The position numbers and the translations under genes were made by a program. 64,000 nucleotides of DNA, taken from the NCBI GenBank assembly GCA_018897295.1, contig JAHILA010000009.1:3154-67153 (forward strand), read 5' to 3'. This DNA comes from Patescibacteria group bacterium (GTDB taxonomy: Bacteria > Patescibacteriota > Minisyncoccia > RBG-13-40-8-A). Shown piece by piece: positions 1-22,429 of the stretch (position 1 is its first letter; each line of letters opens with the position of its first letter). The notes beneath the pieces were generated by a model. That model was not told where the DNA came from and searched no databases. It saw only the letters and a list, made by a program, of their open reading frames with translations.

Positions 1-51
1 TTACCACAGGTTTCCAACCTGTTGAGAGGGGTTCGACTCCCCTTACCCGCT
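1..51 (+). tRNA. tRNA-Gly(UCC), 5'-truncated by the window edge. Anticodon arm, T-arm and acceptor 3' strand ACCCGCT are visible.
   Basis: Anticodon stem ACAGG/CCTGT with loop TTTCCAA (anticodon TCC). T-arm AGGGG-TTCGACT-CCCCT. 3' end ...ACCCGCT matches the tRNA-Gly acceptor. Confidence 0.7.
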
Positions 52-62
52 TTTATAAAAAA

Positions 63-91
63 TACCCCCGACAAGTCGGGAGTATTTTTTT
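63..91. terminator. Bidirectional rho-independent terminator between the tRNA-Gly and the 3' end of rny
   Basis: A-run, then GC hairpin (CCCCGAC..GTCGGG), then T-run TATTTTTTT. Confidence 0.6.
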
Positions 92-133
92 CAAACCCTA
101 TGCTTAATTTTCCTAAGCAATAAGGTCAACCAA

Positions 134-1666
134 CTAACGAGCGTATTCAATAACACGCATTTCTCTAATCACGGTTACTTTAATTTCTCCTGGGTACTTT
201 AATTCTTTTTCAATTTCAGAAGCAATATCTTTGGCTAATTTATAGGCCTTTAAATCATCAATTTTGCCCGGATTAACGAATATTCTGATTTCTCTGCCTG
301 CCTGAATAGCATAAACTTTTTCAACGCCTTCAAATCCAGTGGCAATTTTTTCCAATTCTTCCAATCTCTTTAGATAATTTTCAAGATTCTCTTTTCTTGC
401 TCCTGGCCTGGCAGCTGAAATCGCTTCTGCTGCCTGGACAATTGATGCCTCAATACTTTCAAACGGATAATCTCCATGATGCGACTTCATTGCATCAATT
501 ATCTTCTTGTCAATATTGAATTTTTCCAATATTCTTATGCCAATATCTACATGGGAACCCTGGACTTCGTGGTCAATCGCTTTGCCGATATCATGAAGTA
601 AAGCTCCTTTTTTACAGATAATCGGGTCTGCGCCTAATTCAGAAGCCAGCATCCCAGACAAGTGAGCAGCTTCAATTGAATGTAATAAAACATTCTGCCC
701 GAAACTGGTTCTGAAAGTCAGCTTGCCTAAAAGATTTACCAAACGCGGGTCAAGCCCGACAATGCCGACATCATAAACAGCTGCTTCTCCTGCTTCTTTA
801 ATTTTGGATTCTATTTCTGTTTTTGCCTTATCAACCATCTCTTCAATTCTTGCTGGCTGGATTCTTCCGTCGACCATCAATTTCTCTAAAGCGATTTTGG
901 CAATCTGCCTGCGAGTGGGATCAAATCCGGAAATAATCAGGGTCTCCGGCGTATCATCAATAATCACTTCAACACCAGTCAACCTTTCCAGTGTTTTAAT
1001 GTTTCTTCCTTCTCTACCGATAATTCTTCCTTTGATTTCGTTATTAGGCAAAGTGACGATTGTAGTCGTTACTTCTGCTGCCTGCGAAGAAGCATATCTC
1101 TGCAAGGCAGTAACCATTATATTGTTGGCTTTCTTTTCCAATTCTTCCTTGCCCGATTTTTCAAGTTTCTGGATTTTGGCGAAAATCTCTTCTTTGTTCT
1201 GCTCTTCAACTGATTTTAGAATCTGTTGTTTCGCTTCTGCTTCAGAAAGTTTTGATATTTTTTCTAATATTTCTATCTCTTGTTGTTTTAATGTTTCTAG
1301 TTCGACTTTAATACTTCTGACTTTTTCGACTTTTTCCTGAAACTCCTTTTCTTCGTTCTCTAGTTTTCTGTCCTTGGCATCAAACATCTCTTCTCTTTTA
1401 TCCAATCTTGTTTGAATTCTTCTGTATTCTTCCTGCCTCTTGGTTTCCTCTTTTTTTATTTCATCCAACGCATTAACAACCCTATCTTTAGCTTTTAAGA
1501 TTATTTCCTGAGCCTGCGCTTTTGCTTCATTGACTAGTTTTTCTATTCTCGATTCAGCAGTATTGGCTCGTCTTTTAGCAATAGATTGGCGAGCCAAATA
1601 ACCTAAGATCGACCCGAAAATTAAAGCAACCGTTGCAACTATAAGTGGAATCAGTCCTATTACCAT
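134..1666 (-). CDS. rny: Ribonuclease Y (N-terminal TM anchor, coiled coil, KH domain, HD domain)
   Basis: KH motif GREGRNIKTLERLTG. HD motif LLHDIGKA...HH. N-terminal TM helix and long coiled coil. 510 aa. Confidence 0.9.
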   Translation of the reverse strand: MVIGLIPLIVATVALIFGSILGYLARQSIAKRRANTAESRIEKLVNEAKAQAQEIILKAKDRVVNALDEIKKEETKRQEEYRRIQTRLDKREEMFDAKDRKLENEEKEFQEKVEKVRSIKVELETLKQQEIEILEKISKLSEAEAKQQILKSVEEQNKEEIFAKIQKLEKSGKEELEKKANNIMVTALQRYASSQAAEVTTTIVTLPNNEIKGRIIGREGRNIKTLERLTGVEVIIDDTPETLIISGFDPTRRQIAKIALEKLMVDGRIQPARIEEMVDKAKTEIESKIKEAGEAAVYDVGIVGLDPRLVNLLGKLTFRTSFGQNVLLHSIEAAHLSGMLASELGADPIICKKGALLHDIGKAIDHEVQGSHVDIGIRILEKFNIDKKIIDAMKSHHGDYPFESIEASIVQAAEAISAARPGARKENLENYLKRLEELEKIATGFEGVEKVYAIQAGREIRIFVNPGKIDDLKAYKLAKDIASEIEKELKYPGEIKVTVIREMRVIEYAR

Positions 1667-1750
1667 AAATTTAAGTTACTTAATTACTTTTAAAGCTTAT
1701 CAAAATAAATATATTTTGTCAAAATTGCTATTTGTGCTAAAATTATATCA

Positions 1751-3319
1751 ATGAAACCAATAATTCTCACTATTCTTGATGGATGGGGGATTAACGCTCC
1801 CAGTCTGACAAATGCCATTTCTATGGCAAAAATCCCCAATCTCAAAAAGATGGAGGAGAATTATCCTTATTGTTCATTACAGTCATCTGCCATAGCTGCC
1901 GGCCTGCCGTGGAAAGAGGCTGGTAATTCGGAGGTTGGTCATCTTATTATCGGCAGCGGGAGAATTGTTTACCAATATCTTCCCAGAATCCTAATAGAAA
2001 TTAAAAATGGAAAATTCTTTAAGAATCAGGCATTTTTAAATACAATCAACCATGTCAAAAAGAATAATTCCGTCCTGCATTTAGTGGGATTAATTTCGAG
2101 TGGCAATGTCCATTCATACTTAGAACATATTTATGGATTGCTAGAACTAGCCAAACAAAATGACGTTGCGAATCTGCGTCTACATCTTTTTACAGACGGC
2201 AAAGATGCGCCAATAAAAGAAGGAACAAAAATTATATCGACACTAATGGAAAAATTAAAAAATCCTAATTGGAAAATCGCCTCAATTATCGGCAGATATT
2301 ATAGTATGGATAGAAACAATAACTGGGACAGAACTGAGATTGCTTACAACCTTATCACTCAAGGCATTGGCGAAAAAACCCAAGATTTAATCAAGACACT
2401 ACGAGAATATTATGACCAGGATATTATTGATACCTATATAAAACCGATTGTTATTGTTGACGAAAATCAAAAGCCGATCGGAACAATTTCGGACAATGAT
2501 GCAATTATTTTCTGGGATTTCAGGGAAGACAGCGCCAGACAGCTGACAGGAGCATTTGCTAAGGAAGATTTTGATAAATTCAAAAGAACACAGATAAATA
2601 ACCTGCTTCTCTGCACAATGATTGAATATGACAAATATTTTAATACTGAGGTGGCTTATCCGCCGACAAAAATCCAGAATCATCTTGTAGAAGTTCTCAA
2701 TGCAAACAACAAAAAAGTTTTTAAAATTGCTGAAACAGAAAAATACGCTCATGTTACCTATTTCTTTAACTGTGGCAAGGAAGAACCATATCCGAACGAA
2801 ACCAGAAAACTGATTCCTTCTAAAATTGTTTCTCATTATGAAGAAAACCCGGAAATGCAGGCAGATGAAATCACTAAAGCAATATTAGAGGGTCTAAAAG
2901 GAAATTACGATTTAATTGTGGCTAATTATGCTAATGCCGATATGATGGGCCATACAGGCAATCTTGATGCAGCTATTAAGGCTGCTGAATATGTTGATGG
3001 CGCATTAAAACCAGTCATAGATTTGGCTGAGAAAGGGGACTGCATCTTAATTATCACTGCTGACCATGGCAATATCGAACAAATGGTAAATCTGCGCACC
3101 GGCGAAGTGAAAACCGAACATACTTTAAATCCAGTGCCGTTTTATTTGATTGGGACGGAGTTCAAGACAAACAAAAAGAGCCCCAAATTCTCATTTGAGA
3201 CTCCGTGCGGAATGCTACAGGATATTGCTCCAACGATCCTCGCTTTAATGCACATTCCCCAACCCTCCGAAATGACCGGCACAAACTTACTGGAAATTCT
3301 TACTTCCTCTTATCAATAA
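1751..3319 (+). CDS. gpmI: 2,3-bisphosphoglycerate-independent phosphoglycerate mutase
   Basis: N-terminus ILDGWG. Metal-binding motifs ADHGN and MGHTG. 522 aa, typical iPGM length. Confidence 0.9.
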
Positions 3320-3884
3320 TTTCATCAATTAATCCGTAATCTTTCGCTTCTTCAGCAGACATATAATAGTCGCGGTCGCTGTCTTTTTCCACTTTATCTG
3401 TTTTTTGGCCAGTATGCTTGGCCAAAATTTTATTTAATTTCTGCTTGATTTTCAAAATATGTTTTGCGGAAATTTCAATATCGCTCGCCTGGCCGCCTGC
3501 CTCGCCCATAACTTGATGGATCATTACTTCGGAATTAGGCAAAGCCATCCTCTTTCCTTTTGCGCCTGCTGCCAGAATTACTGCTGCGCCAGAAGCAGCC
3601 ATGCCTATGCAAACCGTTGAAATGTCTGATTTTACAAATTGCATTGTGTCATAAATCGCCATAGTTGAAGTCACGCCTCCTCCTGGACTATTAATGTAAA
3701 TTAAAATATCCTTTTTAGGATCCTGATTTTCTAAAAACAATAATTGCGCAATCACTGAATTTGCTACAATATCATCAATCGGACCGCCTAAAAAAATTAT
3801 CCTGTCTTTTAACAAGCGGGAGTAAATATCATAAGCCCTTTCTCCATATTGCGATTTTTCAATAACTGTTGGTATTAAATTCAT
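3300..3884 (-). CDS. clpP: ATP-dependent Clp protease proteolytic subunit
   Basis: Ser-His-Asp region ...[33 protein letters not shown]. 194 aa. Lies immediately downstream of tig, the conserved tig-clpP order. Confidence 0.9.
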
Positions 3885-4885
3885 ATAATTTTCGCTTCGC
3901 GCTCCAAGAGCTCAAAGACTTTTTCATTTATTAATATATTCTCAGTATACTCTTTAAAAACCACTAAATCAATATTCCCGCCCTCTGGCGGGATCCCGCC
4001 CGACGGCGGGACCTTAACATTATAACGCGTTAATTCCTGATCCATCCTTTCCTCGATTTCCTGTGTAGAGGGGAGGATTTTTTCTTTGTCAGCAATCGCT
4101 TTAATACATAATCCGATTTTCACTCTCTTTCCTGCCTGTTCTCTCCATCCCTTTTTTAACTCATCAGCTGTTGCCTTGATCTGCGTTAAATAAGCCTCAA
4201 AATCCATTCCAAATTGGTCAATATTCATTTTAAACTCATTAACCATATTCTCCAGTTCTTTTTCAATCAGTTCTTCGGGCGCTTCGATTTTTGAATTTTC
4301 GACAACTTTTTCTATCAATTCAATTCTGATTCTTTGTTTCTCCACGATTTCTTTCTCCTGCATCAATCCCTGTTCAATATTCTTTTTCAGCGCTTCCAAA
4401 GAATCGAATTTCCCAAATGATTTTACGAATTCATCATTGATTTCCGGCAATTGTCTTTCCTGCACAAGGTTCATTTTTATCTTAAAATTTAGATTTTTGC
4501 CTGCAATATTTTTATTGCCCCAATCTTCTGGAACTTTCAATAAAAATTCTTTTTCTTCGCCAGCTTTCATTCCTTCCAACTCTTTTTCAAAGCCGGGTAA
4601 GAATCGGCCTTCGCCTATAATTAATGGATGATTTTTGCTTACACCATTCTCTATCTGTACTCCACCTATCCTTGTTTCAAAATCAATTTCCACCCGATTG
4701 CCTTCTTGCGCGGGTTTATTTATGGTAATGATTTTTGCCCTTGATTTTTGCAGATAATCTAAGGCATTAATAATTTCTTTCTCTTCAACTTTCAATTCTT
4801 GCTTCTTCGCTTCCAATCCTTTGTAATTTCCTAATTCAATTCTGATTCCATTTGTCATACCTGTCTCGCCGTAGTCCCGCAACAC
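3881..4885 (-). CDS. tig: Trigger factor lacking the N-terminal ribosome-binding domain (start uncertain, GTG at 4885 or ATG near 4858)
   Basis: Aligns to the PPIase and C-terminal domains of trigger factor ([24 protein letters not shown]). There is no room upstream for the ~110-aa N-domain, because the NUDIX gene ends 14 nt away. Confidence 0.75.
3977..4010. repeat. Two tandem GC-rich hairpins (CCCGCC-CTCT-GGCGGG and CCCGCC-CGAC-GGCGGG) in-frame inside tig
   Basis: Perfect 6-bp GC stems in an AT-rich coding region. They encode [11 protein letters not shown]. The same CCCGCC..GGCGGG hairpin recurs at 50437. Confidence 0.6.
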
Positions 4886-4899
4886 GGGACGAAGGCGGA

Positions 4900-5301
4900 T
4901 TAAATCTCTAAATCCTTAATTAACTTTTTAGTATTAGGCCAGGTTAAGTTTGCAACTGCTGTTTCTTTTTCGACCCACTCATAATTATCATGTTCAATAA
5001 TTGCCTGGTTCAAGGAAATTTTTTCATTCATATTAGCTTTTACTAAAAAGGTTGCAGTAATTTCGTAATCGATTCTGTCTTTTTGCCATTTCTCTGTTTT
5101 ATTTAAATCACGGATGATTTTAAAATCTTTTAATCCGGTTTCTTCTTTTATGCCTCTGATTAATACTTGTTTTAGATTTTCTCCTGGTTCTATGGTTTCT
5201 TTAAGAACTTCCCAGCCATTCCATCTTAAAATACGATGCAAAATTAAAAAATACGGCTTGCCATTTTTAATATCATAAATAATTGCTCTAACTTTTTTCA
5301 T
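4900..5301 (-). CDS. NUDIX hydrolase (likely start MKKVRAII; the ORF track's N-terminal extension overlaps nusA)
   Basis: Nudix box GWEVLKETIEPGENLKQVLIRGIKEETGL. Confidence 0.7.
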   Translation of the reverse strand: MKKVRAIIYDIKNGKPYFLILHRILRWNGWEVLKETIEPGENLKQVLIRGIKEETGLKDFKIIRDLNKTEKWQKDRIDYEITATFLVKANMNEKISLNQAIIEHDNYEWVEKETAVANLTWPNTKKLIKDLEI

Positions 5302-6595
5302 TGTCGTCCTTGCCATCCTTAGCTTTAGCGAGAGAGGGTTTCTTGGTTTTAGATTTTTTTTCTTTTTTCGGTTTCTCGTCCTCTTCTTTTTTGTCCGCAT
5401 CTTCCATCATTTTTTCACTCTTCACATCAATTTTCCAGCCAGTCAATTTGGCTGCCAATCTAACATTCTGTCCTCTTTGACCAATAGCTAAAGAAATTTG
5501 GTCTTCTGGAACAATTACCAGGGCTGTCCTTCTACTTTCATCTATTTTGACGTCAATGATTTTTGCGGGGGAAAGAGAATTAGCAATATATTTTTCTATA
5601 TTTTCGTTCCATTCAATAACATCTATTTTTTCTCCGCCCAATTCATTAATAACTGTCTGAATTCTACTTCCTTTCTGCCCAACACAGCTTCCAATCGGGT
5701 CAATTCCTTCTTCTTCTGTCCAAACCGCAATTTTGGTTCTTGAACCTGGTTCTCTGGCAATGGATTTTATCTGCACTGCGCCGGTTGAAATTTCCGGGAC
5801 TTCAATTGAGAATAATCTACTCACTAATTTAGGATAGGCGCGGGAAAGAATAATATCTGCGCCTTTCGGCGATTTTTCAACCTTTAAAATATATGACCTC
5901 AAACGCTGACCCATAAAAAACCTTTCTCCTGGAATCTGTTCTTCGGGAAATAAAACTCCTACCGCTTTACCGATGTCCAAAAATATATTTCTGCCTTCGA
6001 TTCTTTGGACAATTGCGCTCACGATTTCTCCTTCTTTGTCTTTGTATTCCTCAAAAATGACTTCTCTTTCTGCTTCTCTTAATCGCTGGATAATAACCTG
6101 TTTGGCTGTTTGCGCAGCGATTCTTCCAAAGTCAGTATGTGTTTCGAGTTTTGTCTGAATTTCGTCTTCAATTTTTGCGTTTTTCTTAATTTTCTGGGCA
6201 TCCTCCAACATTATATGTTTATATGGATTAAATCTAATTTTTTTATTGCCATCTTCATCTTTCCCGACGTCTTCCCCTAGTGGAGTCGGGACTCCGACCT
6301 CGCCTTCGGCGAGCGTCGGAGCTTCTTCTTCAATTTTGCCTTCTTTGTCTTTCTTTAGCATGCTCTCATCCACAACTAAAAAAACCTGGAAAACTTTTAT
6401 TTCCCCAGTTTTTATATCAAATTTAACTTTGATATTCTGGCCTTTTTTGCCATAATCCTTTTTGTATGCAGCAGCAATCGCCATTTCAAGGGTCTCGACG
6501 ATCTGTTCCTGAGAAATGCCTTTTTCCTCGGCAATCTGGCTCATTGCTGAAATAAATTGTTTTTGATCCATAGATTTAATGAAAGGCCCGACCAA
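5288..6595 (-). CDS. nusA: Transcription termination/antitermination factor NusA
   Basis: N-terminal domain, S1 and tandem KH domains recognisable. Lys/Glu-rich C-terminal tail. Confidence 0.85.
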   Translation of the reverse strand: MVGPFIKSMDQKQFISAMSQIAEEKGISQEQIVETLEMAIAAAYKKDYGKKGQNIKVKFDIKTGEIKVFQVFLVVDESMLKKDKEGKIEEEAPTLAEGEVGVPTPLGEDVGKDEDGNKKIRFNPYKHIMLEDAQKIKKNAKIEDEIQTKLETHTDFGRIAAQTAKQVIIQRLREAEREVIFEEYKDKEGEIVSAIVQRIEGRNIFLDIGKAVGVLFPEEQIPGERFFMGQRLRSYILKVEKSPKGADIILSRAYPKLVSRLFSIEVPEISTGAVQIKSIAREPGSRTKIAVWTEEEGIDPIGSCVGQKGSRIQTVINELGGEKIDVIEWNENIEKYIANSLSPAKIIDVKIDESRRTALVIVPEDQISLAIGQRGQNVRLAAKLTGWKIDVKSEKMMEDADKKEEDEKPKKEKKSKTKKPSLAKAKDGKDDNEKS

Positions 6596-6647
6596 AGTCG
6601 GACCGTAAATGATTAAGAAATAATATTATTATATTAAAAATCCGTTG

Positions 6648-7097
6648 TCAATACATATCACCAACTGCATTTTCTGTATGGCGAATATCATATGAGCCGT
6701 TGCGATAAACTTCTACTGCCAGAATATCAATTTGCCACGAACTATCAAACAATCTATGTTTGCTTAAATAAATTTGTGATAATTTGATTAATTTTTTCTG
6801 CTTAGCGTAAGTAATATTGTCTTCTGGCCAAAATCCGCCAGGCCCAGTTTTATTGCGCGTTTTTACCTCAATAAAAACAATGTCGTTCCTGCCCGCAACG
6901 CCAGCAACCTGCCCGCTCGCAAGCTCGCGTTGCAGGCGGGGCTGGCTTGCGTGGCGGGCGGGTTTCTCTGCAATAATATCCAATTCTCCCAGTTTGCTGT
7001 ATCTGAAATTCTTATCTAAAATTTTATATCCTTTTCTTTTTAAATATTCTCTGGCAATTTTTTCTCCCAAATCGCCTAAATCTTTTCTCTCGCACAT
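6648..7097 (-). CDS. YraN-family (UPF0102) endonuclease carrying an in-frame ~26-aa GC-rich insertion
   Basis: Conserved GYKILDKNFR...GELDIIA and IVFIEVKTR blocks are separated by PARHASQPRLQRELASGQVAGVAGRND. That insert is encoded by a ~80-bp, ~75% GC block. Confidence 0.7.
   Translation of the reverse strand: MCERKDLGDLGEKIAREYLKRKGYKILDKNFRYSKLGELDIIAEKPARHASQPRLQRELASGQVAGVAGRNDIVFIEVKTRNKTGPGGFWPEDNITYAKQKKLIKLSQIYLSKHRLFDSSWQIDILAVEVYRNGSYDIRHTENAVGDMY
6886..6966. repeat. GC-rich element (CCTGCCCGC x2 ... GCGGGCGGG) inserted in-frame in yraN
   Basis: Sharp GC island in an AT-rich gene. It shares the CCTGCCCGC / GCGGGCGGG(G) motifs with elements at 8150-8206 and 37268-37391. Confidence 0.7.
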
Positions 7098-7099
7098 TT

Positions 7100-7933
7100 T
7101 TATTCTTTCTCGTTTAATTTCTCAACTATATTTTCTGCTTTTGCCAATCCTTCCTCGCTACCAATATCAGTCCATAAACCGCGGTGGACAAATGCCAATA
7201 ATTGTTTTTTCTCTGCCAGCAGCGGAAAAATACATTCTTCAATGGCAAATGCCTCGCCTTCTTTCTTGGCGCGTATACATTTTGTCTGTAAAAGCTGCGG
7301 AGACAAAACATAAAAACCAGCATTAACATATCCAGAATATTGATATTCCGGATCTTCTTGGAATTCCACTACGCGATTATTCTTGGTCTTAACCAAACCC
7401 ATGCCTTTGACATTTTGATCATAATAAACTGCCATTGCGCCCAAAATTTCTTCATATGAAACCCTTTTTCTTAAAGGAGAGATTCCCGAGGTAATACTTC
7501 TCACAAATGATGAAGAAGAAAAGAATTTCGGTTCTGAAACATTGGTTTTATAAAATTTAATAAAGTTATTCAGGTCGAAATTACTTAAAGTATCGCCGTT
7601 CATTATTAAAAAATCCTTTTTCAAATCTTTGGAAGCTGACATTATTGCTCCTCCTGTTCCCAATGGTTTTGTTTCGACAACATATTCAATTCCCGCCACT
7701 TTTCCTATTTTTTTAGAAATATTTGCTTTTGGATCTTTGATTTTCAGATATTTTAAAATCTCTTCTGCTTTATAGTGGAGACTCAAACAGATATCATCAA
7801 ATTTATATTTTTTCAATAAATCCAATTGATATTCCAATAATGGTTTCCCTTTTATTTTAATCAGGGATTTGGGTATATTTTTCAATTTTCCAGGCAGGTC
7901 GGTTTTACCTCCTGCCAAAATAATGACTTTCAC
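7100..7933 (-). CDS. Sugar-phosphate nucleotidyltransferase (NTP_transferase family, RmlA/GlmU/ManC-like). GTG start.
   Basis: N-terminal MKVIILAGGKTDLPGKL...KPLL signature of nucleotidyl transferases. Confidence 0.7.
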   Translation of the reverse strand: MKVIILAGGKTDLPGKLKNIPKSLIKIKGKPLLEYQLDLLKKYKFDDICLSLHYKAEEILKYLKIKDPKANISKKIGKVAGIEYVVETKPLGTGGAIMSASKDLKKDFLIMNGDTLSNFDLNNFIKFYKTNVSEPKFFSSSSFVRSITSGISPLRKRVSYEEILGAMAVYYDQNVKGMGLVKTKNNRVVEFQEDPEYQYSGYVNAGFYVLSPQLLQTKCIRAKKEGEAFAIEECIFPLLAEKKQLLAFVHRGLWTDIGSEEGLAKAENIVEKLNEKE

Positions 7934-8074
7934 CCCGTACTAGATTTTCGACATATTTATGTTAGTTTTGTCGAAAATCAATTAATATTTGTAATTATAA
8001 TAATCTATTATTGATTTATCATGCCCCGATTGCGGTCCCGATAAATCGGGACCAGTCGAAAATTCAGTACGGGG
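7933..8074. repeat. MITE-like palindromic element bounded by ~20-bp inverted repeats (CCCCGTACTAGATTTTCGAC / GTCGAAAATTCAGTACGGGG) with internal hairpins
   Basis: 18/20 inverted-repeat match at 7933-7952 and 8055-8074. Internal TTTTCGACA-N15-TGTCGAAAA repeat and GGTCCCGA-TAAA-TCGGGACC hairpin. A related element sits at 46117-46186. Confidence 0.6.
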
Positions 8075-8149
8075 TTCATGCCCAGAGTTAATTTTAACTC
8101 TGCAAAATAAAAAGTCAACCCTATTTGTCGACTTAGTGGACTTGGCGAG

Positions 8150-8206
8150 AATCCCTGCCCGCCAAAGCTGCACTTGGCGCTGCGGGCGGGGAACTCGCGT
8201 CTCAAT
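8150..8206. repeat. GC-rich imperfect long hairpin (CCTGCCCGCC...GCGGGCGGGG) immediately 3' of tRNA-Ala
   Basis: Same motif family as the yraN insert. On the minus strand: GCGAG-TT-CCCCGCCCGCAG-[CGCCAA-GTGCAGCT-TTGGCG]-GGCAGGGATT-CTCGC. Confidence 0.6.
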
Positions 8207-8208
8207 TT

Positions 8209-8281
8209 TGGACCATAGCGGATTCGAACCGCTGACCTCGTCAATGCGAATGACGCGCTCTACCAACTGAGCTAATGGCCC
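8209..8281 (-). tRNA. tRNA-Ala(CGC)
   Basis: Reverse complement reads GGGCCATTAGCTCAGTTGGTAGAGCGCGTCATTCGCATTGACGAGGTCAGCGGTTCGAATCCGCTATGGTCCA. It has the G3:U70 alanine identity pair and anticodon CGC. Confidence 0.85.
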
Positions 8282-9538
8282 TTATTCGTGTCTTAGTGCT
8301 TCAATTGGATTAAGTTTGGCAGCTTTCTTAGCAGGATAAATACCGAAAACCAAACCGACAATTGCAGCAACCCCGAATGCCAGGACAACCGCGCTAACAG
8401 GAACAGCAAAACCCCAGCTTATATTCAAAACACTGCTCAAGACAATTGCTACGATAAAAGAAATCGATGTACCGCCAAGAAATCCTATGATCCCGCCGAT
8501 TAAGGTTAGGGTAATTGATTCCAATAAAAACTGATTCAAAATATCCTTATTTCTTGCGCCAACTGCTTTTCTTAAGCCAATTTCTTTTGTCCTTTCTGTA
8601 ACTGAAACCAGCATTATATTCATGATGCCGATTCCGCCGACAATTAAAGCAATCGCAGCAATAGAAGAAAGAAATGCAGTAAGAATTCCGGTAATCTGGG
8701 CCATCATATTGCTTGCTTCAACTTGGCTCATTACTTTAAAATCATCCCTGGATAAGTCCCCTTCTGGATTATAAATATTATGAGTATCTCTGAGAATAAA
8801 ACGAATATTCTCCATTAATCTATCCACAGTATCTTCATTTATAGCCCGGACAGTAATAGCGTTTAAATGATCTATTCCCAATAAAAGTTTCTGGGCAGTT
8901 GTTACGGGAATATAAACATATTCGTCATAATTCTGGAACATTTCCATCCCGCGTTCTTCCATTACGCCAATTACTTTGAAACTGGTTTTTTTAATCCTAA
9001 TCGTTTTGCCAATCGGATCTTCTTCTCCGAATAAATCTCCTGCTATTTTATAGCCCAATGTTGCCACTCTTGCCATACTTTTAACTTCTTCTTCATTAAT
9101 ATCCCTTCCAATAACTGCATGCCAATCATCCATAATATATGCTTCTGGAGTTGTTCCTATGAAAGTTATTTTTTCATCATTATTCTGATAAACAGCCCTG
9201 GCAGTTCCATAAACCATTGGATAAGCCATATCTACTAAAGGGTCTTTTTCTATTGCTTCCATGTCTTTAAGTTTTAGGGTTTTTATTGTCATCTCCTCCA
9301 ATGCCATTTCCATGCCAAAACCTCCTTTGGGATCAAATGAACCTGGTTCAATATAGATACTATTAGAACCCAAGGACTGAATTTGACCTATAATTAAATT
9401 TTGGGCGCTTCTGCCAATTGACATCATTAAAATTACCGAACCAACGCCAATAATAATGCCAAGCATAGTTAAAGCAGAGCGCATTTTATTCGTCCTTAAT
9501 GTAATAAAAGAAATTTTAAGAGAATCTCTGAGTCTCAT
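8282..9538 (-). CDS. ABC transporter permease, MacB/FtsX-like (periplasmic domain plus 4 TM helices)
   Basis: N-terminal TM helix, large extracytoplasmic domain and C-terminal FtsX-type helices. Lies downstream of the ABC ATPase. Confidence 0.75.
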   Translation of the reverse strand: MRLRDSLKISFITLRTNKMRSALTMLGIIIGVGSVILMMSIGRSAQNLIIGQIQSLGSNSIYIEPGSFDPKGGFGMEMALEEMTIKTLKLKDMEAIEKDPLVDMAYPMVYGTARAVYQNNDEKITFIGTTPEAYIMDDWHAVIGRDINEEEVKSMARVATLGYKIAGDLFGEEDPIGKTIRIKKTSFKVIGVMEERGMEMFQNYDEYVYIPVTTAQKLLLGIDHLNAITVRAINEDTVDRLMENIRFILRDTHNIYNPEGDLSRDDFKVMSQVEASNMMAQITGILTAFLSSIAAIALIVGGIGIMNIMLVSVTERTKEIGLRKAVGARNKDILNQFLLESITLTLIGGIIGFLGGTSISFIVAIVLSSVLNISWGFAVPVSAVVLAFGVAAIVGLVFGIYPAKKAAKLNPIEALRHE

Positions 9539-9541
9539 AAT

Positions 9542-10252
9542 TTATTTCAGCAGTCCATTTTTAGCGATTTTTCTGTCCGCTACTCGTTCATCGCTAACTA
9601 TCTGCCCATCTTTTAATTTTATTATTCTTCTTGCCATTTCCGCTGTATATTGTTCATGCGTGACTAAAATAATCGTATGTCCTACTTCATTTAAATCCTG
9701 TAAAATTTCCATTATTTGCTGACCTGACTTACTGTCCAGATTTCCTGTTGGCTCATCAGCAAAAATTACTGAAGGATCATTTACAATTGCCCGTGCAATT
9801 GCCACTCTCTGCTGTTCGCCTCCGGACAGTTGATTCGATAAATGCTTCATTCTATGGGAAAGCCCAACTGATTCAATCGCTTTCATAACTCTCTGCTTTT
9901 TTTCTTCCTCAGAAATTTTTGTGTAGGCAAGAGGCAATCTGACATTTTCAAAAACTGTTGTCCTGGGAAGCAGATTGAAAAACTGAAAAATAAATCCCAA
10001 TTTATTGTTTCTGACAAAAGCCAATTGGTCATCATCTAAATCTTCAATTCTTTGATTTTCAAATTTATAAACACCAGAACTTGGCCTGTCCAGGAATCCC
10101 ATAATATGCATTAATGTCGATTTGCCGGAACCGGACGGCCCCATAATTGCCAAGAATTCTCCCTTTTCAATATTAAAAGAAACCCTCTCCAGGGCCACTG
10201 TTTTTACTTCATCATCCGAATATTCTTTTCTAAGATTTTCTGCTACAATCAT
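9542..10252 (-). CDS. ABC transporter ATP-binding protein (MacB/LolD-type)
   Basis: Walker [13 protein letters not shown] signature [14 protein letters not shown]. Walker [12 protein letters not shown]. Confidence 0.9.
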
Positions 10253-10257
10253 TTATT

Positions 10258-11880
10258 TCAATTTTTCATGAATGTAATAATTTTCTCTCCTTCGCTTAAA
10301 CCGCTTAAAATTTCAATTTCCCCTTTATTGCCGCGCAATCCAGTAGTAACTTCTGTTTCTACTATTTCCTCGCCGTCTAAAACTCTGACAAATTTTTTAC
10401 TATTTTTAGAAACAACTGCTCTTTGCGGAACATTCAAGACATTATCTCTTTTCTCTGCCTGAATTGTCGCTTCCCCTGACATTCCTGATTTTATTTTTTG
10501 TTCATCTCCTTCAAATAAAATTTTTACTTTATAATAAACAACGCTGTCAATTATGGTTTTACTTGAATCAATCTCAATAATCTGGCCAAGGAACGATTCT
10601 TCTGGAAGCGCATCCAAGATTATTAAAACTGGATCATCCATGCTTACTTTGCTGATATCTGTTTCCGGGATATCAATTTCTATTTGCAATCCTTCTGGGT
10701 TAGTTAAAGATACAATTACTTTCTCGCCAACAGTAATTACTTCTCCGATTCTTACATCTATTTTTGCAATTATCCCGTCAAAGGGTGCAATAATAGAAGC
10801 ATCGCTTAATTTTTTGCTGTATTCAGCCAAGTTTGCCTTATATTTATCAACATCTGCCTGATAAACCGCGATATCAACCACGCGTGGCGAGGCTTGCAGT
10901 TTTTCTAAATCAACTTTGGCTTTATTGTAAGCACTTTCAACTGTATTGATGTTTATTTGATTCGTAACTTTCTGATTAGCAATGTCTGCCTTGGCAGTAT
11001 TAATATTGCTGACGGCAGCATTAAGATTGACAATATTCGTATCAATTGTAGTTCTATCCGTAGTAGAAACCTTTTCCCTTGTAGATGGATCACTCATTGC
11101 GGTTTTGGTATAATCCAAAGCATCTGTGATTTTCTGGAGTGCGAGCCACATATTGTCCAAAGCCGCATCAATATTGCTATATGTCGGATTTATTTCAGAA
11201 TCATCAACATAATCTTTCGCGCCTTTTATTTTGGAAGTTCCCAAATATGCTTCTTCTGCTTTGTCATTTTTATCCCTAAAAATAACGGATAAAGAATCGC
11301 TATAATAGAAATACAATCTTTCTATATCTTTCAGGTCTGCTAATGCCTTGTTATATTTACTGGAAGAATCAATTAAATATACCAAAGCTGAACCATAATC
11401 TTGATTTAAATCATTTTCTGCCTTGTCTCGAGCATCTTCAAGAGCTATTCTGGCATTTTCTAAAACTTGCTCGCTGACTTTTATTTCCTCGCTGCTTGCG
11501 CCTGCCAAAAGCTGATCTAATTTTGCTTTTACCTGACTGTAGCTTGCCTGCGCCTGCAAATACTGGCTGTAAACAGTACCGGAATCTAAACTTACTAAAT
11601 ATACCCCCTTTTTGACCTTGTCGCCAACCTTAACCAGAATTCTTTCTACTGTACCATTGGTTTTAAACCTTAAATCAATTTCATCAATTGATTGAACCAT
11701 GCCATTGGCGGAAACTTCTTGAATCACGTCTCCTCTTGCAACGAATCCTGTCTCGTATGTCGGCTTTTCGGATTTTAAAACAGGAATTAAGATAAGAACA
11801 ATAACAATCAAAACAATACCAAGAATTATCTTGGTTTTTCTTTTTAATGTTTTAATTTTCTGCAATGAATCTTTCAACAT
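10258..11880 (-). CDS. Periplasmic adaptor / membrane-fusion protein (HlyD/MacA-like) with long coiled coil
   Basis: N-terminal TM helix, biotinyl/lipoyl-like half-domains and ~250 aa of coiled coil. First gene of the adaptor-ATPase-permease operon. Confidence 0.7.
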   Translation of the reverse strand: MLKDSLQKIKTLKRKTKIILGIVLIVIVLILIPVLKSEKPTYETGFVARGDVIQEVSANGMVQSIDEIDLRFKTNGTVERILVKVGDKVKKGVYLVSLDSGTVYSQYLQAQASYSQVKAKLDQLLAGASSEEIKVSEQVLENARIALEDARDKAENDLNQDYGSALVYLIDSSSKYNKALADLKDIERLYFYYSDSLSVIFRDKNDKAEEAYLGTSKIKGAKDYVDDSEINPTYSNIDAALDNMWLALQKITDALDYTKTAMSDPSTREKVSTTDRTTIDTNIVNLNAAVSNINTAKADIANQKVTNQININTVESAYNKAKVDLEKLQASPRVVDIAVYQADVDKYKANLAEYSKKLSDASIIAPFDGIIAKIDVRIGEVITVGEKVIVSLTNPEGLQIEIDIPETDISKVSMDDPVLIILDALPEESFLGQIIEIDSSKTIIDSVVYYKVKILFEGDEQKIKSGMSGEATIQAEKRDNVLNVPQRAVVSKNSKKFVRVLDGEEIVETEVTTGLRGNKGEIEILSGLSEGEKIITFMKN

Positions 11881-11950
11881 TTTCGCAATATAGGTATTAT
11901 AAACAATTAAAATCCTCCAAGCAAGTTTTTTAAACCATATAAAAAGGAAT

Positions 11951-11983
11951 AAAAAAAAGAGCGGGGCGCTTGCCGCCGCTCCT
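11951..11983 (-). terminator. Rho-independent terminator downstream of the 12003-12257 gene
   Basis: Hairpin GAGCGGCGGCAAGCGCCCCGCTC followed by TTTTTTTT on the minus strand. Confidence 0.6.
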
Positions 11984-12002
11984 ATTTAAATCCCGCTCCT
12001 TG

Positions 12003-12257
12003 TTATCTTAAATATAAGATAACCCTCCTCGATTCTTTGATGACGCTGTGTGTGCTGTCGCCATGTAGATTTTTGGAAAGCTCCTTGATTGCCTGAAGAG
12101 ATTTTCCGGCCAATTCTTTCCCTAGCCTTTCAACGACAGAAACAACGATAATCGGTTTCCGGTCTTTGGTAATTTTCATTTGAACAGGGATGAATCTGCC
12201 ATCCTCTTCAAAATACATCTCCAAGCCCTCGCCAAACAGATTTTTTAATTTCGTCAT
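12003..12257 (-). CDS. Small hypothetical protein (start moved to MTKLKN, which has a GGAGG RBS)
   Basis: AAGGAGG lies 6 nt upstream of the ATG at 12257. A terminator follows. Confidence 0.5.
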   Translation of the reverse strand: MTKLKNLFGEGLEMYFEEDGRFIPVQMKITKDRKPIIVVSVVERLGKELAGKSLQAIKELSKNLHGDSTHSVIKESRRVILYLR

Positions 12258-12304
12258 TTTTCCTCCTTGAATCTTCAATATAGCATACTTCAACTAAAAA
12301 GTCA

Positions 12305-12334
12305 AGAAAAACAAAAAATCTCCGCAAGAGGAGA
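12305..12334 (-). terminator. Rho-independent terminator after the three-Cys-motif gene
   Basis: Hairpin TCTCC-TCTTGC-GGAGA followed by TTTTTTGTTTTT on the minus strand. Confidence 0.5.
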
Positions 12335-12369
12335 ATTTTGAGAGGATAATAAAAATTAATATAGAGGTC

Positions 12370-13194
12370 CTAATACTGATAAATTGGCAAAGGTGCGACC
12401 TTGAAAATTTTTTCTGTTTTTTTGTTATATTTTTCCTCGGTTCCGTTTTTTATATGATATTCAATTCCTTTTCTCTGACAAAAATTAATAACTCTATCTG
12501 ATTGTCTTTGATAAAAATCCTTATTATTTCCATAATTCGATTTTACATTGTAGTTTAATTTTCCAAATACAATTTTATCTACAAAAGATACAGAATTTAA
12601 AACTTCCCATATATTCTGTTCCTGTAAATTAGGCGTTGGGTATGGCTCCATACTCGCCCAAGTTTTTAATCCTTTTTTGTGTAAATATTCTAATGCCTTG
12701 ATTCTTTCTTTATATGGCGCAGAATATGGTTCAAATCTTTTCTTGAAGTTTTTGCTTAAAGAAATAAGAGTTATTCCATATTCATTATTTTGCCCATATT
12801 TTTCGATATCCATTAATTCTTTTGGATAAATCCCTTTTGTTAGAACAGTGCAACGAATATTGTCTTTATTTAATCTCTCAATTATTTTCAGAGTTAAATC
12901 TGCCACCTCTGGATATTTATACATAAAAGGATCGGTCGAAAAACATAAATGGACATATTTAATTTTATTTTTATATTTGGGAATTTCTTTCTCTAATAAC
13001 TGTAAGGCATTAGATACAATCTTGGGTTTTATCCAATCCTTATAATCTTTTATTGCCCCAGTTCTCTTTTTCATCATCATGGCATAACAGGGAAAATTAC
13101 AACCATGAGCACATCCTTCCACGTGGTTAATACAAAAATCAGCATATTCAACCCCACTTCTATATAATAAGGTTTTACGGGTTATGCTTTTCAT
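12370..13194 (-). CDS. Three-Cys-motif protein (C-x3-C-x3-C, radical-SAM-like spacing variant), function unknown
   Basis: HVEGCAHGCNFPCYA near the N-terminus. Adjacent to a TcmP-like partner gene. Confidence 0.5.
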   Translation of the reverse strand: MKSITRKTLLYRSGVEYADFCINHVEGCAHGCNFPCYAMMMKKRTGAIKDYKDWIKPKIVSNALQLLEKEIPKYKNKIKYVHLCFSTDPFMYKYPEVADLTLKIIERLNKDNIRCTVLTKGIYPKELMDIEKYGQNNEYGITLISLSKNFKKRFEPYSAPYKERIKALEYLHKKGLKTWASMEPYPTPNLQEQNIWEVLNSVSFVDKIVFGKLNYNVKSNYGNNKDFYQRQSDRVINFCQRKGIEYHIKNGTEEKYNKKTEKIFKVAPLPIYQY

Positions 13195-13209
13195 ATTTAT
13201 ATTATACCA

Positions 13210-14097
13210 TTATTTTGGGACTTTTAAAATTAAATTATGTTCTAATAATTTTAAAGCTTTAAGCTTCTCAAAATGTTTAAAAATGTCTTCTACAATCTTT
13301 TTGGCTTTATCATTATGCCCCGCATAAATTAAACAATAAAGTGGTGTATTCTTCGAATTTCTCATAATTAATGGCAGAGAAACATATTCAAACACAGATT
13401 TCAATCTTTTAATGAAGTATTCGCTTAGCTTCTTGCCATCAATGTAATCTTTTATCTTTATGGGCCCAAAAAGAGTAGACGCATCAATATACATTATATT
13501 CTGCCAGTCATTATTCCCCCAAAAGCGGTTCATTCTTTCTATGTGTTTTTGAGTAAGCTTACTTGGATTATTTAACAAACAAGCTCTATTTATTGCCATA
13601 ATGGGCATATTTAAAAATATCTCAATTGTTTTTATTTTAGCTGCCTGCTCTATTATTTCCCAACTTATATTCATTCCAAAGGGATCTAAAAACACTAAAA
13701 CTCTTTTAAAACTACTATATGGAAACTGCGGTATCAATTTAGTGAGAACCTCATTGCAATCATCATTTTTTATTATTATCTCTAAATCTTTAAATCGTCT
13801 TTTAATAGATTCTAGTTTTTTTATTCTCCATTTTTCTTTCTCTATAAAAAAATATGCAGTAAAAGGGTTTTTAATGCTCAAGGCGCAACATGGAGAACCA
13901 TCTATAAATCGTTTTTCATCTCTAGCTTTCGGCTTACCAGTTCCGGCGAAAGCATCAATATAATAATAACCTTTACACCACCTTTGATTCTTCATTATTT
14001 TAGTGTAAGCCTCTAAATATTTCTTTAATAAAGAAAGTTTGTCTTCTGACCATCTGCCAACTTCATCAAATTGATCTTTTTTTCTTATAATTTTCAT
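13210..14097 (-). CDS. TcmP-like partner protein with a SAM-methyltransferase-like FAGTG motif
   Basis: YIDAFAGTGK motif (MTase motif I-like). From memory, this resembles the 'three-Cys-motif partner protein TcmP' family. Gene pair arrangement. Confidence 0.45.
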   Translation of the reverse strand: MKIIRKKDQFDEVGRWSEDKLSLLKKYLEAYTKIMKNQRWCKGYYYIDAFAGTGKPKARDEKRFIDGSPCCALSIKNPFTAYFFIEKEKWRIKKLESIKRRFKDLEIIIKNDDCNEVLTKLIPQFPYSSFKRVLVFLDPFGMNISWEIIEQAAKIKTIEIFLNMPIMAINRACLLNNPSKLTQKHIERMNRFWGNNDWQNIMYIDASTLFGPIKIKDYIDGKKLSEYFIKRLKSVFEYVSLPLIMRNSKNTPLYCLIYAGHNDKAKKIVEDIFKHFEKLKALKLLEHNLILKVPK

Positions 14098-16883: not shown

Positions 16884-16887
16884 TATT

Positions 16888-22409: not shown

Positions 22410-22429
22410 ATAGTAAAAATTTATCAATC

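Follow-up and report, generated by a model that had tools for sequence, protein, structure and literature searches.

How can a GC-rich palindromic block reside in frame within a protein-coding gene of Patescibacteria, whose tiny and densely coding genomes are thought to carry little repetitive DNA? The question is raised by a gene of the YraN family in the window analyzed here, i.e., the whole stretch of 64,000 nucleotides taken from contig JAHILA010000009.1 of a Patescibacteria group bacterium (assembly GCA_018897295.1).

The palindromic block in yraN

The sequence-only reading of this DNA had described a GC-rich block inside yraN that carries two copies of one motif and another motif at its terminus and introduces neither a stop codon nor a frameshift. 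All of this was borne out. The block comprises 75 nt with 76% GC (35% in the window), CCTGCCCGC occurs on the forward strand at 6888 and 6908, followed by GCAGGCGGGG at 6932 and GCGGGCGGG at 6954, and the insert lies in an open frame between the segments GELDIIAEK and DIVFIEVKTR. The proposed length of 26 residues has to be corrected: the 125-aa homologues and the empty site of the relatives L002 and L003 delimit an insert of 72–75 nt corresponding to 24–25 aa. The insert peptide has 25 residues (PARHASQPRLQRELASGQVAGVAGR).

The block is a composite. An outer element of 42 nt (CCCGCCCGCCACGCAAGCCAGCTTGCTGGCGTTGCGGGCAGG) holds in its apical loop a second, related hairpin of 33 nt with the same 9-bp foot (Table 1). 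Either strand is predicted to fold into a single long nested hairpin (-51.2 kcal/mol on the forward and -46.4 kcal/mol on the reverse strand, z about -3 in both cases). Arms of 9 nt occur seven times in the window with 0.21 expected (15 matches versus 3.3 if one mismatch is allowed), and four arm pairs were counted versus none in 100 first-order Markov simulations. Chance is therefore no explanation for the recurrence of this motif.

Table 1. Coordinates of the features discussed (positions refer to the window).
Feature	Position	Strand	Remarks
yraN (UPF0102, PD-(D/E)xK nuclease fold)	6648..7097	-	149 aa versus 125 in homologues; Pfam PF02021, E = 4e-21
Composite palindromic yraN insert	6888..6962	-	without counterpart in syntenic L002/L003; nested hairpin; 25 extra in-frame codons
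Ends of the composite insert			gene (-) strand: CCCGCCCGC...GCGGGCAGG; + strand: CCTGCCCGC...GCGGGCGGG
Left arm of outer 42-mer	6941..6962	-	CCCGCCCGCCACGCAAGCCAGC on - strand; equals family consensus
Inner 33-nt hairpin	6908..6940	-	CCCGCCTGCAACGCGAGCTTGCGAGCGGGCAGG on - strand; in apical loop of the 42-mer between GCCAGC and TTGCTGGC
Right arm of outer 42-mer	6888..6907	-	TTGCTGGCGTTGCGGGCAGG on - strand; equals family consensus
Remnant of relatives' tRNA-Ala 3' end	8135..8145	-	CCAAGTCCACT; behind hairpin; aligns with CCAGGTCCACT, the tRNA-Ala 3' end of L002/L003
Foot-type hairpin	8153..8191	+	CCCTGCCCGC-N19-GCGGGCGGGG; 17 nt downstream of tRNA-Ala(CGC); same 9-bp foot, different top
Outer tRNA-Lys(CTT), split in 3' strand of D-stem	37222..37413	-	5' part 37392..37413, 3' part 37222..37271
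120-nt insert with foot arms	37272..37391	-	CCTGCCCGC...GCGGGCGGG (- strand); loop holds complete tRNA-Lys(CTT) 37299..37371
GIY-YIG/tRNA cassette	37440..37864	-	compared with L008; PF01541
New tRNA-Arg(TCG)	37440..37513	-	in tRNA-Arg cassette
GIY-YIG ORF	37492..37770	-	in tRNA-Arg cassette
GC-rich hairpins of other families	about 37781..37848	-	in tRNA-Arg cassette
Old tRNA-Arg 5' fragment	37849..37864	-	16 nt, identical to start of L008 tRNA-Arg

Alignment of YraN with its homologues, which had been proposed as a check, reveals the insert as additional to the 125-aa proteins and as missing in a relative of about 90% identity. Both L002 and L003 (about 90% DNA identity, fully syntenic) possess an empty site, GAGAAA|AAC, with neither a duplication nor a microduplication, and in L002 this site is the loop enclosed by a perfect inverted repeat of 10 bp. 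The same 42-mer is present at the same position of yraN in L001, L004, L005, L028, L029, L036, L044 and L076, whose YraN proteins are 64–79% identical to that of the window; in L001, L004 and L005 it is found without the inner 33-nt hairpin. Insert carriers are scattered over the YraN tree and have insert-free sisters, and the window itself is 89.0% identical to the insert-free L002 versus 85.8% to the insert-bearing L001. The shared position could be the result of repeated insertion, of an old insertion followed by repeated precise loss or of recombination between lineages. We consider it likely that the yraN block originated by insertion of a mobile, non-coding, GC-rich palindromic mini-element.

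Alignment with homologues shows that all catalytic and invariant residues of YraN are retained. The insert is located in the two-residue turn of the beta hairpin that bears the catalytic Asp and the Glu-x-Lys motif, and the loop is variable in other homologues, too. In the AlphaFold model the core is predicted with confidence, and the insert appears as a low-confidence loop (pLDDT about 50) between the strands 38–45 and 72–82. The nuclease fold is most likely left intact, with the insert probably being translated as a flexible surface loop of 25 residues at the tip of the beta hairpin.

A function as intrinsic terminator of yraN was rejected. Canonical terminators have their U-run close behind the stem, and here the sense-strand U-run follows 9–12 nt past it, which is too far. 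Read antisense to yraN, the hairpin together with an immediately following TTTCTC (UUUCUC in RNA) resembles a terminator.

Distribution and sequence of the 42-nt element

The outer element was detected in at least 120 metagenome stretches and in 34 stretches of species-representative genomes. Altogether at least 118 unique flank pairs are known from Patescibacteria of many classes, ranging from Saccharibacteria to Microgenomates and Parcubacteria, and the sequence was recovered in independent assemblies (ENA, JGI, NCBI, Logan). Exact copies number one to three per genome. The search pattern fixed the left arm, and conservation was assessed on the free right arm alone, which is nearly invariant in 69 copies. 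The consensus begins with CCCG, ends with CAGG and has a GC content more than twice that of the genome. Typical of the family are the 9-bp foot (CCCGCCCGC/GCGGGCAGG) with a conserved C·A mismatch, which is a T·G wobble on the opposite strand, and a variable top. Exactly 42 nt were found in 95 of 113 copies, the variants spanning 33–84 nt. Such a nearly unchanged 42-mer in Saccharibacteria, Microgenomates and Parcubacteria indicates either recent horizontal spread or strong constraint.

Nesting is not restricted to yraN: L041 and L081 contain the same composite arrangement at other sites, and different inner hairpins occupy the same loop position in L045, L061, L069, L116 and L124.

Long ORFs harbour 53 of the at least 118 unique sites, in either orientation and every reading phase. 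Host genes confirmed so far encode GatB, CysRS, GatA, CarA and a class-V aminotransferase, with the inserts inside catalytic domains; a uvrD-like gene is a further host, and additional copies reside in tRNA D-loops. With these copies and the empty site of yraN, the earlier suggestion of a palindromic family that sits in RNA genes as well as in frame in proteins is supported. The spread throughout Patescibacteria, the two nested elements in yraN and the link to GIY-YIG/tRNA cassettes described below go beyond it. One sequence of 42 nt is thus carried nearly unchanged by essential genes (gatA, gatB, cysS, carA, uvrD-like, yraN) and may be a source of loop insertions that enlarge and diversify the proteins of these bacteria of the candidate phyla radiation (CPR).

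All six reading frames of the 42-mer are free of stop codons, and since its length is a multiple of three, copies within genes keep the reading frame. In long ORFs only lengths of 42, 45, 81 and 84 nt occur, and non-coding copies include 46, 50, 76, 79 and 83 nt. The variant lengths behind this comparison are few, three of three coding ones being multiples of three (four of four with the window) versus two of seven non-coding ones. Multiples of three in ORFs, both orientations and a stop-free sequence argue for translation and against splicing out.

Among 2.9 million viral contigs no exact 27-mer of the element was found that would point to carriage by phages. In Rfam, hits passing the gathering threshold were confined to tRNAs, and relaxing the cut-off to E ≤ 10 added nothing relevant. 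A search of the published literature by sequence and keyword yielded no description of the element, and the text of a paper on introns in Patescibacteria tRNA genes mentions neither hairpins nor GIY-YIG.

The element is also carried by seven MAGs (GC 33–51%) labelled "uncultured Gammaproteobacteria". One of them, L140, shows a CPR-like gene content together with the same GIY-YIG cassette described below, and the label of the seven is regarded as doubtful.

tRNA loci and associated GIY-YIG genes

The motifs had also been reported next to tRNA-Ala and within the tRNA-Lys locus of the window, and the 9-nt arms are indeed found at 8154..8190 and 37272..37391. At the former locus the hairpin belongs to a 72-bp stretch that is missing from L002 and L003. 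The tRNA-Ala of the window (8209..8281) is markedly different from theirs, being about 70% identical by count of the alignment.

At the tRNA-Lys locus the arms flank a segment that had been regarded as merely intervening. The arms on both sides stand, but the segment itself is a complete tRNA-Lys(CTT) nested within a split tRNA-Lys(CTT). Its predicted fold consists of the foot helix, a second helix and an inner cloverleaf. The joined outer parts form a canonical tRNA of 72 nt, the 3' end of which corresponds to the end of the uninterrupted tRNA-Lys(CTT) in L008. Comparison with relatives including L008 reveals tRNA replacement at three loci of the window, namely tRNA-Arg, tRNA-Ala and tRNA-Lys.

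Foot hairpins accompany genes for 78-aa GIY-YIG proteins that adjoin replaced tRNA genes. In these proteins the Pfam catalytic domain (PF01541) extends over residues 1–71. At 15 loci the 42-mer has a GIY-YIG ORF no more than 270 nt away, and the foot hairpin and a tRNA were present at four of four GIY-YIG genes picked irrespective of the hairpin. In all examined cassettes a tRNA adjoins the GIY-YIG gene and a tRNA 5' fragment is located upstream; a profile-HMM census (hmmsearch) of GIY-YIG ORFs in the analyzed DNA agrees with this pattern. The hairpin is hence a constant component of these cassettes. The GIY-YIG gene lies beside the complete hairpin and not between two arms; the tRNA-Lys locus does have cargo between its arms. 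A fixed orientation of the 42-mer in relation to the GIY-YIG ORF was rejected (seven the same, three inverted). About 85% of the copies have neither a GIY-YIG gene nor a tRNA nearby. The only GIY-YIG gene of the window is part of a cassette of the same architecture, but belongs to another subfamily and is found beside other hairpin families.

Insertion signature, possible mechanisms and known analogues

No conserved target sequence was detected around the copies, a weak purine preference at position -1 being the one signal. Adjacent repeats of 2–3 nt are no commoner than in shuffles, i.e., there is no regular target-site duplication, and flanks that extend the stem are not enriched. With neither a conserved target nor a regular duplication the element matches no known transposition chemistry. 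The inverted repeat at the empty site of L002, the nested copies in apical loops and the tRNA copies in D-loops prompted the idea of insertion into hairpin loops. As a general rule it was rejected, since the junction falls into a loop in 14 of 79 rejoined flanks versus 7–19 in 20 control sets.

The mechanism that we prefer, though tentatively, is that a small GIY-YIG nuclease might act in trans as mobiliser of the hairpin or cruciform. This putative nuclease would consist of the catalytic domain only, presumably without a sequence-reading domain, and copies would be cut or copied into breaks with neither a fixed target nor a regular target duplication. The same system would exchange resident tRNA genes for its own tRNA.

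The foot hairpins may accordingly be pictured, again with reservation, as the cis element of a hitherto undescribed mobile system of Patescibacteria with three parts. The first would be the 78-aa nuclease, recognising the extruded hairpin or cruciform instead of a sequence. Hairpin units would form the second, moving alone and in frame into genes or with cargo between their arms. The third would be a tRNA, as cargo or neighbour, that replaces the resident tRNA broken by the system; any loss of the element would then deprive the host of this tRNA. The tRNA-Lys within a tRNA-Lys as well as the remnants at tRNA-Arg, tRNA-Ala and tRNA-Pro in the window would represent snapshots of this replacement process.

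Alternatively, the hairpins could be filler DNA that does not transpose, but is copied from existing copies when a double-strand break is mended by repair synthesis or template switching. Such breaks could be spontaneous or made by GIY-YIG nucleases, and the insertions would lack a fixed target and be flanked by variable microduplications. This would fit the missing target consensus and regular duplication and also the direct repeats of at least 6 nt, which flank 12 of 82 sites versus 2.6 expected; new hairpins nested at a single loop position and hairpins exactly at the junctions of old and new tRNA sequences in the cassettes are in line with it as well. Untargeted capture, however, predicts ragged ends and other fillers, whereas the ends of the 42-mer are clean and constant in most copies, and the empty site of yraN is free of microduplication. 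We regard filler capture as unlikely.

Clearly less probable is a structural signal in DNA or RNA that is selected by the host and spread by recombination, such as a terminator of antisense transcription, an element of RNA processing or stability or a protein-binding site. Near-invariance across distant classes, including the conserved mismatch, would be expected from such a signal, and the terminator-like TTTCTC antisense to yraN and the hairpins abutting 5' or 3' ends of tRNAs at several loci are compatible with it. But close relatives lack the element at the same site, and it occurs in both orientations and all reading phases within catalytic domains of unrelated housekeeping genes. Its few exact copies per genome and the lack of an Rfam family match also speak against a host signal.

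The sequence-only reading had left room for removal of the insert at the RNA or protein level. Such removal, whether by an unknown kind of RNA excision, by ribosomal bypass or after translation, appears very improbable. The splicing domain of an intein, with its nucleophile and His-Asn motifs, takes up about 130 aa or more, so that protein splicing is excluded for inserts of 14–25 residues, among them the 25-aa one of yraN, that contain no such residues. Group I, group II and archaeal bulge-helix-bulge introns are not supported either, as Rfam gave no match to an intron family, neither with its gathering threshold nor with a cut-off of E ≤ 10. Bypassed mobile inserts do exist in gene 60 of phage T4, according to an excerpt of the source (bioRxiv 10.1101/2022.08.31.505936), and the same foot hairpin splits a tRNA-Lys whose parts, joined without the insert, would form a canonical tRNA. 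The interrupted tRNA-Lys, however, has a complete replacement with the same anticodon inside the insert, copies in ORFs would not need to be stop-free multiples of three if they were excised, and their two orientations result in differing mRNA sequences. Ordinary lineage-specific coding sequence (a low-complexity loop expansion, as the variability of this loop among homologues might suggest) or an assembly artefact can practically be dismissed, as the identical 42-mer is found in unrelated genes, tRNAs, intergenic DNA and independent assemblies, has more than twice the GC content of the genome and matches, to our knowledge, no known sequencing adaptor.

The trio of hairpin, 78-aa GIY-YIG gene and tRNA is a candidate for a new route of moving DNA and replacing tRNAs. 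If the nuclease is structure-specific, the trio would rank with the smallest self-contained mobility modules known to us. The element also explains oddities prone to misannotation by automatic pipelines, such as tRNA genes that are split or duplicated, tRNA 5' fragments and Ala/Gly/Arg-rich protein inserts.

The closest analogues are the Rickettsia palindromic elements (RPEs). These non-coding palindromic repeats of about 150 bp, with about ten families described in Rickettsia, reside in frame in unrelated metabolic and housekeeping genes and are translated as an extra peptide compatible with the fold (reviewed in PMC10969869). The Patescibacteria element is likewise palindromic, hairpin-forming and in frame in protein genes. 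RPEs also occur in RNA genes. By description the present element is set apart by its size (42 nt, 75 nt as composite) and by being GC-rich in AT-rich Patescibacteria, nearly invariant across classes, low in exact copies, nested in its own loop and tied to GIY-YIG/tRNA cassettes. After Rickettsia it would represent a second, independent instance of selfish DNA that persists because each of its frames can be translated.

GC clusters and hairpin elements of AT-rich mitochondria (yeast, fungal double-hairpin, sponge and placozoan elements) are GC-rich palindromes inside protein and rRNA genes. They similarly spread in a compact AT-rich genome, but are organellar, unrelated in sequence and in part bound to defined target motifs; we know of no link between them and a GIY-YIG gene with tRNA replacement.

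Repetitive extragenic palindromes (REPs) are short (20–40 bp), GC-rich imperfect palindromes with a conserved foot, according to an excerpt of the source (PMC3733652), and in this they resemble the present element. In contrast, REPs are extragenic, present in high copy number and marked by GTAG or CGTC at one end, whereas the elements described here start with CCCG or CCTG, are largely intragenic and low-copy and have neither tetranucleotide in their flanks. No RAYT (Y1 transposase) was found among the 28 ORFs of the window scanned with Pfam, the window being part of the genome.

As in MITEs, terminal inverted repeats are present in the form of the 9-bp foot arms. A target-site duplication of fixed length was found neither at the yraN site nor in the adjacent repeats, and no parent IS was found, the 78-aa GIY-YIG gene being the only recurrent neighbour.

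From rRNA genes of CPR bacteria uncharacterised insertions shorter than 200 bp are known that belong to neither of the intron groups I and II, as well as GIY-YIG genes in non-intron insertions (PMC11270868). Compared by description, these come from the same phylum, but are located in rRNA genes, and no hairpin family is described.

Phage T4 encodes the GIY-YIG nuclease SegB within a cluster of tRNA genes, and inheritance or conversion favours this tRNA region, as stated in an excerpt of the source (PMC2330249). The replaced tRNA-Arg, tRNA-Ala and tRNA-Lys of the window resemble such a conversion. I-TevI and similar homing enzymes possess a DNA-binding domain, which is assumed for SegB as well. 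The Patescibacteria proteins differ in comprising 78 aa with the catalytic domain and in being accompanied by the foot hairpin and the upstream tRNA 5' fragment. As in free-standing GIY-YIG homing, a GIY-YIG catalytic domain (PF01541) is encoded beside the gene that it would convert, in these cases a tRNA replaced relative to L008.

The GC-rich block in yraN

The window, part of a Patescibacteria genome, has a GC content of 35%, and its yraN gene harbours a block (see Table) that is far richer: the 72 of its 75 nt that are missing in a relative have a GC content of 76%. On the plus strand this block reads CCTGCCCGC AACGCCAGCAA [CCTGCCCGC TCGCAAGCTCGCGTTGCAG GCGGG] GCTGGCTTGCGTG GCGGGCGGG, and a single nested hairpin is predicted for either strand (-51.2 and -46.4 kcal/mol), with z of about -3 against shuffles. 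Its arms are far commoner in the window than chance would allow (7 observed versus 0.21 expected; four arm pairs versus none in 100 simulations). The sequence-only reading was thus correct in its coordinates and description; its insert of 26 codons has to be reduced to 24-25.

Features of yraN and of the tRNA loci in the window
Feature	Position	Strand	Remarks
YraN/UPF0102 protein, 149 aa	6648..7097	minus	PF02021, E = 4e-21
GC-rich block inside yraN, 75 nt	6888..6962	gene on minus	
Half element GGCGTTGGCAGGCGGGG with tRNA remnants	22427..22490	minus	after tRNA-Pro(CGG), 22499..22569
tRNA-Lys(CTT) within tRNA-Lys(CTT)	37222..37413; inner 37299..37371	minus	120-nt foot-armed insert
tRNA-Arg cassette	37440..37864	minus	16-nt fragment, hairpins, GIY-YIG ORF, new tRNA-Arg
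GIY-YIG ORF, 92 aa	37492..37770	minus	PF01541, also weakly T5orf172

Two stretches from relatives, L002 (ENA) and L003 (NCBI GCA_035528175.1), are syntenic with window positions 1..12000 and share 91% DNA identity with them over the aligned region and 89.0% around yraN. Their yraN codes for 125 aa; precisely at the position of the block, which is an insertion, it has GAGAAA|AACAATAAT, and alignment of this empty site with the window reveals no duplicated target at the insertion point. In a comparison of YraN homologues, named as a check by the sequence-only reading, 17 of the 120 closest cluster representatives carry an insert, and 103 have a two-residue turn (G/D/N then N/D) at this point. 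In an AlphaFold model of the window protein, built on 90 homologues, the insert lies between strands 38-45 and 72-82 with a pLDDT of about 50, while the YraN fold outside it scores 86-90. The (nearly) invariant residues D40 and E77/K79 sit on the flanking strands and are kept in the window protein. The insert is probably translated as a surface loop. In L002 (10001..10378) a perfect 10-bp inverted repeat, GATATTATTG...CAATAATATC, codes for the two YraN beta strands and has the empty site as its 10-nt loop.

At the same yraN position the relative L001 contains, in gene sense, CCCGCCCGCCACGCAAGCCAGCTTGCTGGCGTTGCGGGCGGG (42 nt), and a near-identical 42-mer is present in L004 and L005, the YraN proteins of which are only 67-69% identical to that of the window. 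The window gene has this 42-mer plus 33 nt, CCCGCCTGCAACGCGAGCTTGCGAGCGGGCAGG, placed between GCCAGC and TTGCTGGC, a junction that corresponds to the apical loop of the 42-mer. The inner piece shows the same foot (the 9-bp arm pair common to the family) and a different top (the variable remainder); the insert consists of two elements, one within the other.

A neighbour-joining tree of 120 YraN homologues, reconstructed with the insert columns left out, scatters the insert-bearing proteins and gives them insert-free sisters (for example in the pairs P0002/P0012, P0004/P0006 and P0001/P0005). By identity the window itself is nearer to L002, which has no insert (89.0%), than to L001, which has one (85.8%). 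According to the alignment the same loop is filled by other hairpin types (NPSSAKASAG, QPAFAEATARQ) and a second YraN loop also takes inserts. Elements have entered or left the yraN site on more than one occasion, either by repeated gain or by one gain and precise losses. A selection filter may contribute to this recurrence because only that turn tolerates 14-25 extra residues. The second hot spot precedes the conserved WQIDILA block (P0041, P0051, P0083, P0094, P0102 and P0120) and its inserts include NPAAAGQD, NLPAGRQENK and LLAGSPRFGEAGRQVNK.

Dispersal, conservation and in-frame residence of the 42-mer

The 42-mer represents a real, dispersed and highly conserved family. A metagenome scan yielded at least 120 stretches with its left arm, and a search limited to a single genome for each species yielded 34 stretches with an exact 27-mer, at 1-3 per genome, in Levyibacteriota, Falkow-, Davies-, Roizman-, Gottesman-, Doudna- and Shapirobacteria as well as in Saccharibacteria, the Parcubacteria group and Paceibacterota. 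Both scans pooled comprise at least 118 unique flank pairs. Among the metagenome matches listed, 95 of 113 complete copies are exactly 42 nt long and the others are nested or slightly expanded versions. In the right arm, which the query had left free, 16 of 20 positions differ in no more than 2 of 69 copies among the matches listed. In 53 of 82 of these listed copies positions 3 and 40, which pair with each other, hold C and A; this conserved mismatch becomes a T.G wobble on the opposite strand. The mismatch is present in all four arm pairs of the window, which is why CCTGCCCGC had at first been seen paired with GCGGGCGGG. The outer 42-mer of the window is identical to the family consensus. 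The exact 27-mer also occurs in seven MAGs (GC 33-51%) titled "uncultured Gammaproteobacteria bacterium" (L140, L144, L151, L155, L160, L163 and L166), a label that looks wrong; in L140 and L155 a GIY-YIG ORF and a tRNA lie beside it.

Among the matches listed, 53 of 118 sites are located within long ORFs (150 aa or more, with 30 aa or more on either side of the element). These copies occur in both orientations and in all three phases, and the consensus is, in our own reading, free of stop codons in all six frames. Hosts confirmed by Pfam include GatB, cysteinyl-tRNA synthetase, GatA amidase, CarA and a class-V aminotransferase; UvrD-like helicases and a TsaD-like protein were judged by eye. 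Element lengths in long ORFs (42, 45, 81 and 84 nt, together with 75 in the window) are all multiples of three, and those of non-coding copies include 46, 50, 76, 79 and 83. This pattern, drawn from few variant lengths, is what translation predicts and not removal from the mRNA, so the latter alternative of the sequence-only reading is disfavoured; its main proposal of a small palindromic family residing in tRNA loci and in frame in proteins is borne out by the dispersed, in-frame copies.

tRNA loci and GIY-YIG cassettes

The family turns out to be linked, unexpectedly, to the replacement of tRNA genes. Within the window the theme of hairpin and tRNA is seen four times, at tRNA-Arg, tRNA-Ala, tRNA-Lys(CTT) and tRNA-Pro. 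The 16-nt fragment of the tRNA-Arg cassette matches the tRNA-Arg of the relative L008, its GC-rich hairpins are of other families, and its GIY-YIG ORF overlaps by 22 nt the 5' end of the new tRNA-Arg, which has GC-richer stems. At the tRNA-Ala locus a spacer of 17 nt separates the new tRNA from a foot hairpin, and after 7 more nt come the last 11 nt of the tRNA-Ala that relatives carry. The canonical outer tRNA-Lys(CTT) is split in the D stem, and the loop of the insert is a second complete tRNA-Lys(CTT) with an identical 20-nt anticodon arm and different acceptor and T arms; L008 has at this place a single unbroken tRNA-Lys(CTT), the sequence of which is of a third type. The partly duplicated remnants next to tRNA-Pro look like the T arm and the acceptor 3' end of another tRNA. 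Relatives have tRNA-Pro just after the gene of the CCA-adding enzyme (L008, L005) or one gene further (L004, L006), and in the window after RNase J.

In metagenome loci a 5' fragment of a tRNA repeatedly carries the 42-mer in its D-loop; next come a 78-aa GIY-YIG ORF and then a complete tRNA with the identity of the fragment (Val, Asp, Lys or His). One Gly locus has no ORF left. All 15 ORFs of this 78-aa subfamily in 965 kb of examined DNA have a 42-mer no more than 270 nt away. The 78-aa family comprises more than 1600 clusters, and each of four members picked without regard to hairpins is accompanied by a foot-type hairpin, the top of which varies, at a distance of about 70 nt or less, and by a tRNA immediately downstream. 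Two layouts occur, [tRNA 5' fragment, hairpin, a few tRNA nt, ORF, tRNA] and [ORF, hairpin, tRNA]. A profile-HMM census (hmmsearch) of GIY-YIG ORFs in all DNA examined showed the same association of foot hairpins with GIY-YIG/tRNA cassettes.

Possible mechanism, known elements and other features of the window

The data show that the hairpin has inserted and dispersed, resides in frame, nests and accompanies GIY-YIG/tRNA cassettes; we infer that it is mobile DNA. Comparison of flanks among the matches listed revealed neither a conserved target sequence nor a regular target duplication; direct repeats of at least 6 nt flank 12 of 82 listed sites versus 2.6 expected. A general preference for insertion into hairpin loops was considered and not found across rejoined flanks. 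We favour a mechanism in which the small GIY-YIG nuclease would act in trans on the folded palindrome. The main rival is repair synthesis, by which hairpins would be copied into breaks. Maintenance of the hairpin for a host function is unlikely because close relatives lack it, both orientations occur within unrelated catalytic domains and the copy number is low.

Rickettsia palindromic elements (PMC10969869) are nearest in behaviour, but the 42-mer differs in the size and host that define them. REP elements and mitochondrial GC-rich hairpin elements are nearest in form, but the extragenic location and end tetranucleotide of REPs are absent, as is the target duplication of miniature inverted-repeat transposable elements. 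The cassettes resemble free-standing GIY-YIG homing genes such as T4 segB in a tRNA cluster (PMC2330249), but the catalytic-domain model matches nearly the whole length of the cassette protein. Short uncharacterised and GIY-YIG-bearing non-intron insertions were reported in rRNA genes of CPR bacteria (PMC11270868) and may be related to the foot-hairpin elements. The searchable literature, with its incomplete coverage, yielded no description of the 42-mer, which belongs to a widespread and apparently undescribed family.

Further hairpins are found in the window. A GC-rich double hairpin of the GCTCCGAC...GTCGGAGC type (6274..6326), common to the window and L002, lies in frame in nusA (5288..6595, minus), the N-terminal domain of which exceeds the Pfam model by about 46 aa; the same type occurs upstream of the GIY-YIG ORF (~37781..37816). 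Another GC-rich hairpin family within coding sequence consists of tandem pairs of short hairpins (TCCCGCC-N4-GGCGGGA, twice). One pair occupies 3972..4019 within the trigger factor gene (3881..4885, minus) and others are present in L002 (12971..13018), L004 (14707..14746) and L006 (15399..15442); in several relatives such pairs are found in frame close to the 3' end of tig or nusA. L002 and L003 lack a GC-rich hairpin insert of 45 bp that the window has where the NUDIX and trigger-factor genes meet (4860..4904). Conversely, an insert of 121 bp with two hairpins is present in L002, and not in the window, between the NTP-transferase gene and yraN.

Between the same flanking genes, L008 lacks two segments of about 10 kb each that are present in the window. 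The first (~11900..22500) contains a second RNase J paralogue, PPDK-like genes and GlmS, with tRNA-Pro at its end; the second (~26600..36900) encodes an Eco57I/MmeI-like restriction-modification enzyme, an HNH protein and a staphylococcal-nuclease homologue, and adjoins tRNA-Lys(TTT). The ORF at 39511..40962 (plus strand) is an unusual fusion of LexA DNA-binding, Peptidase_S24 and N6_N4 DNA methyltransferase domains.
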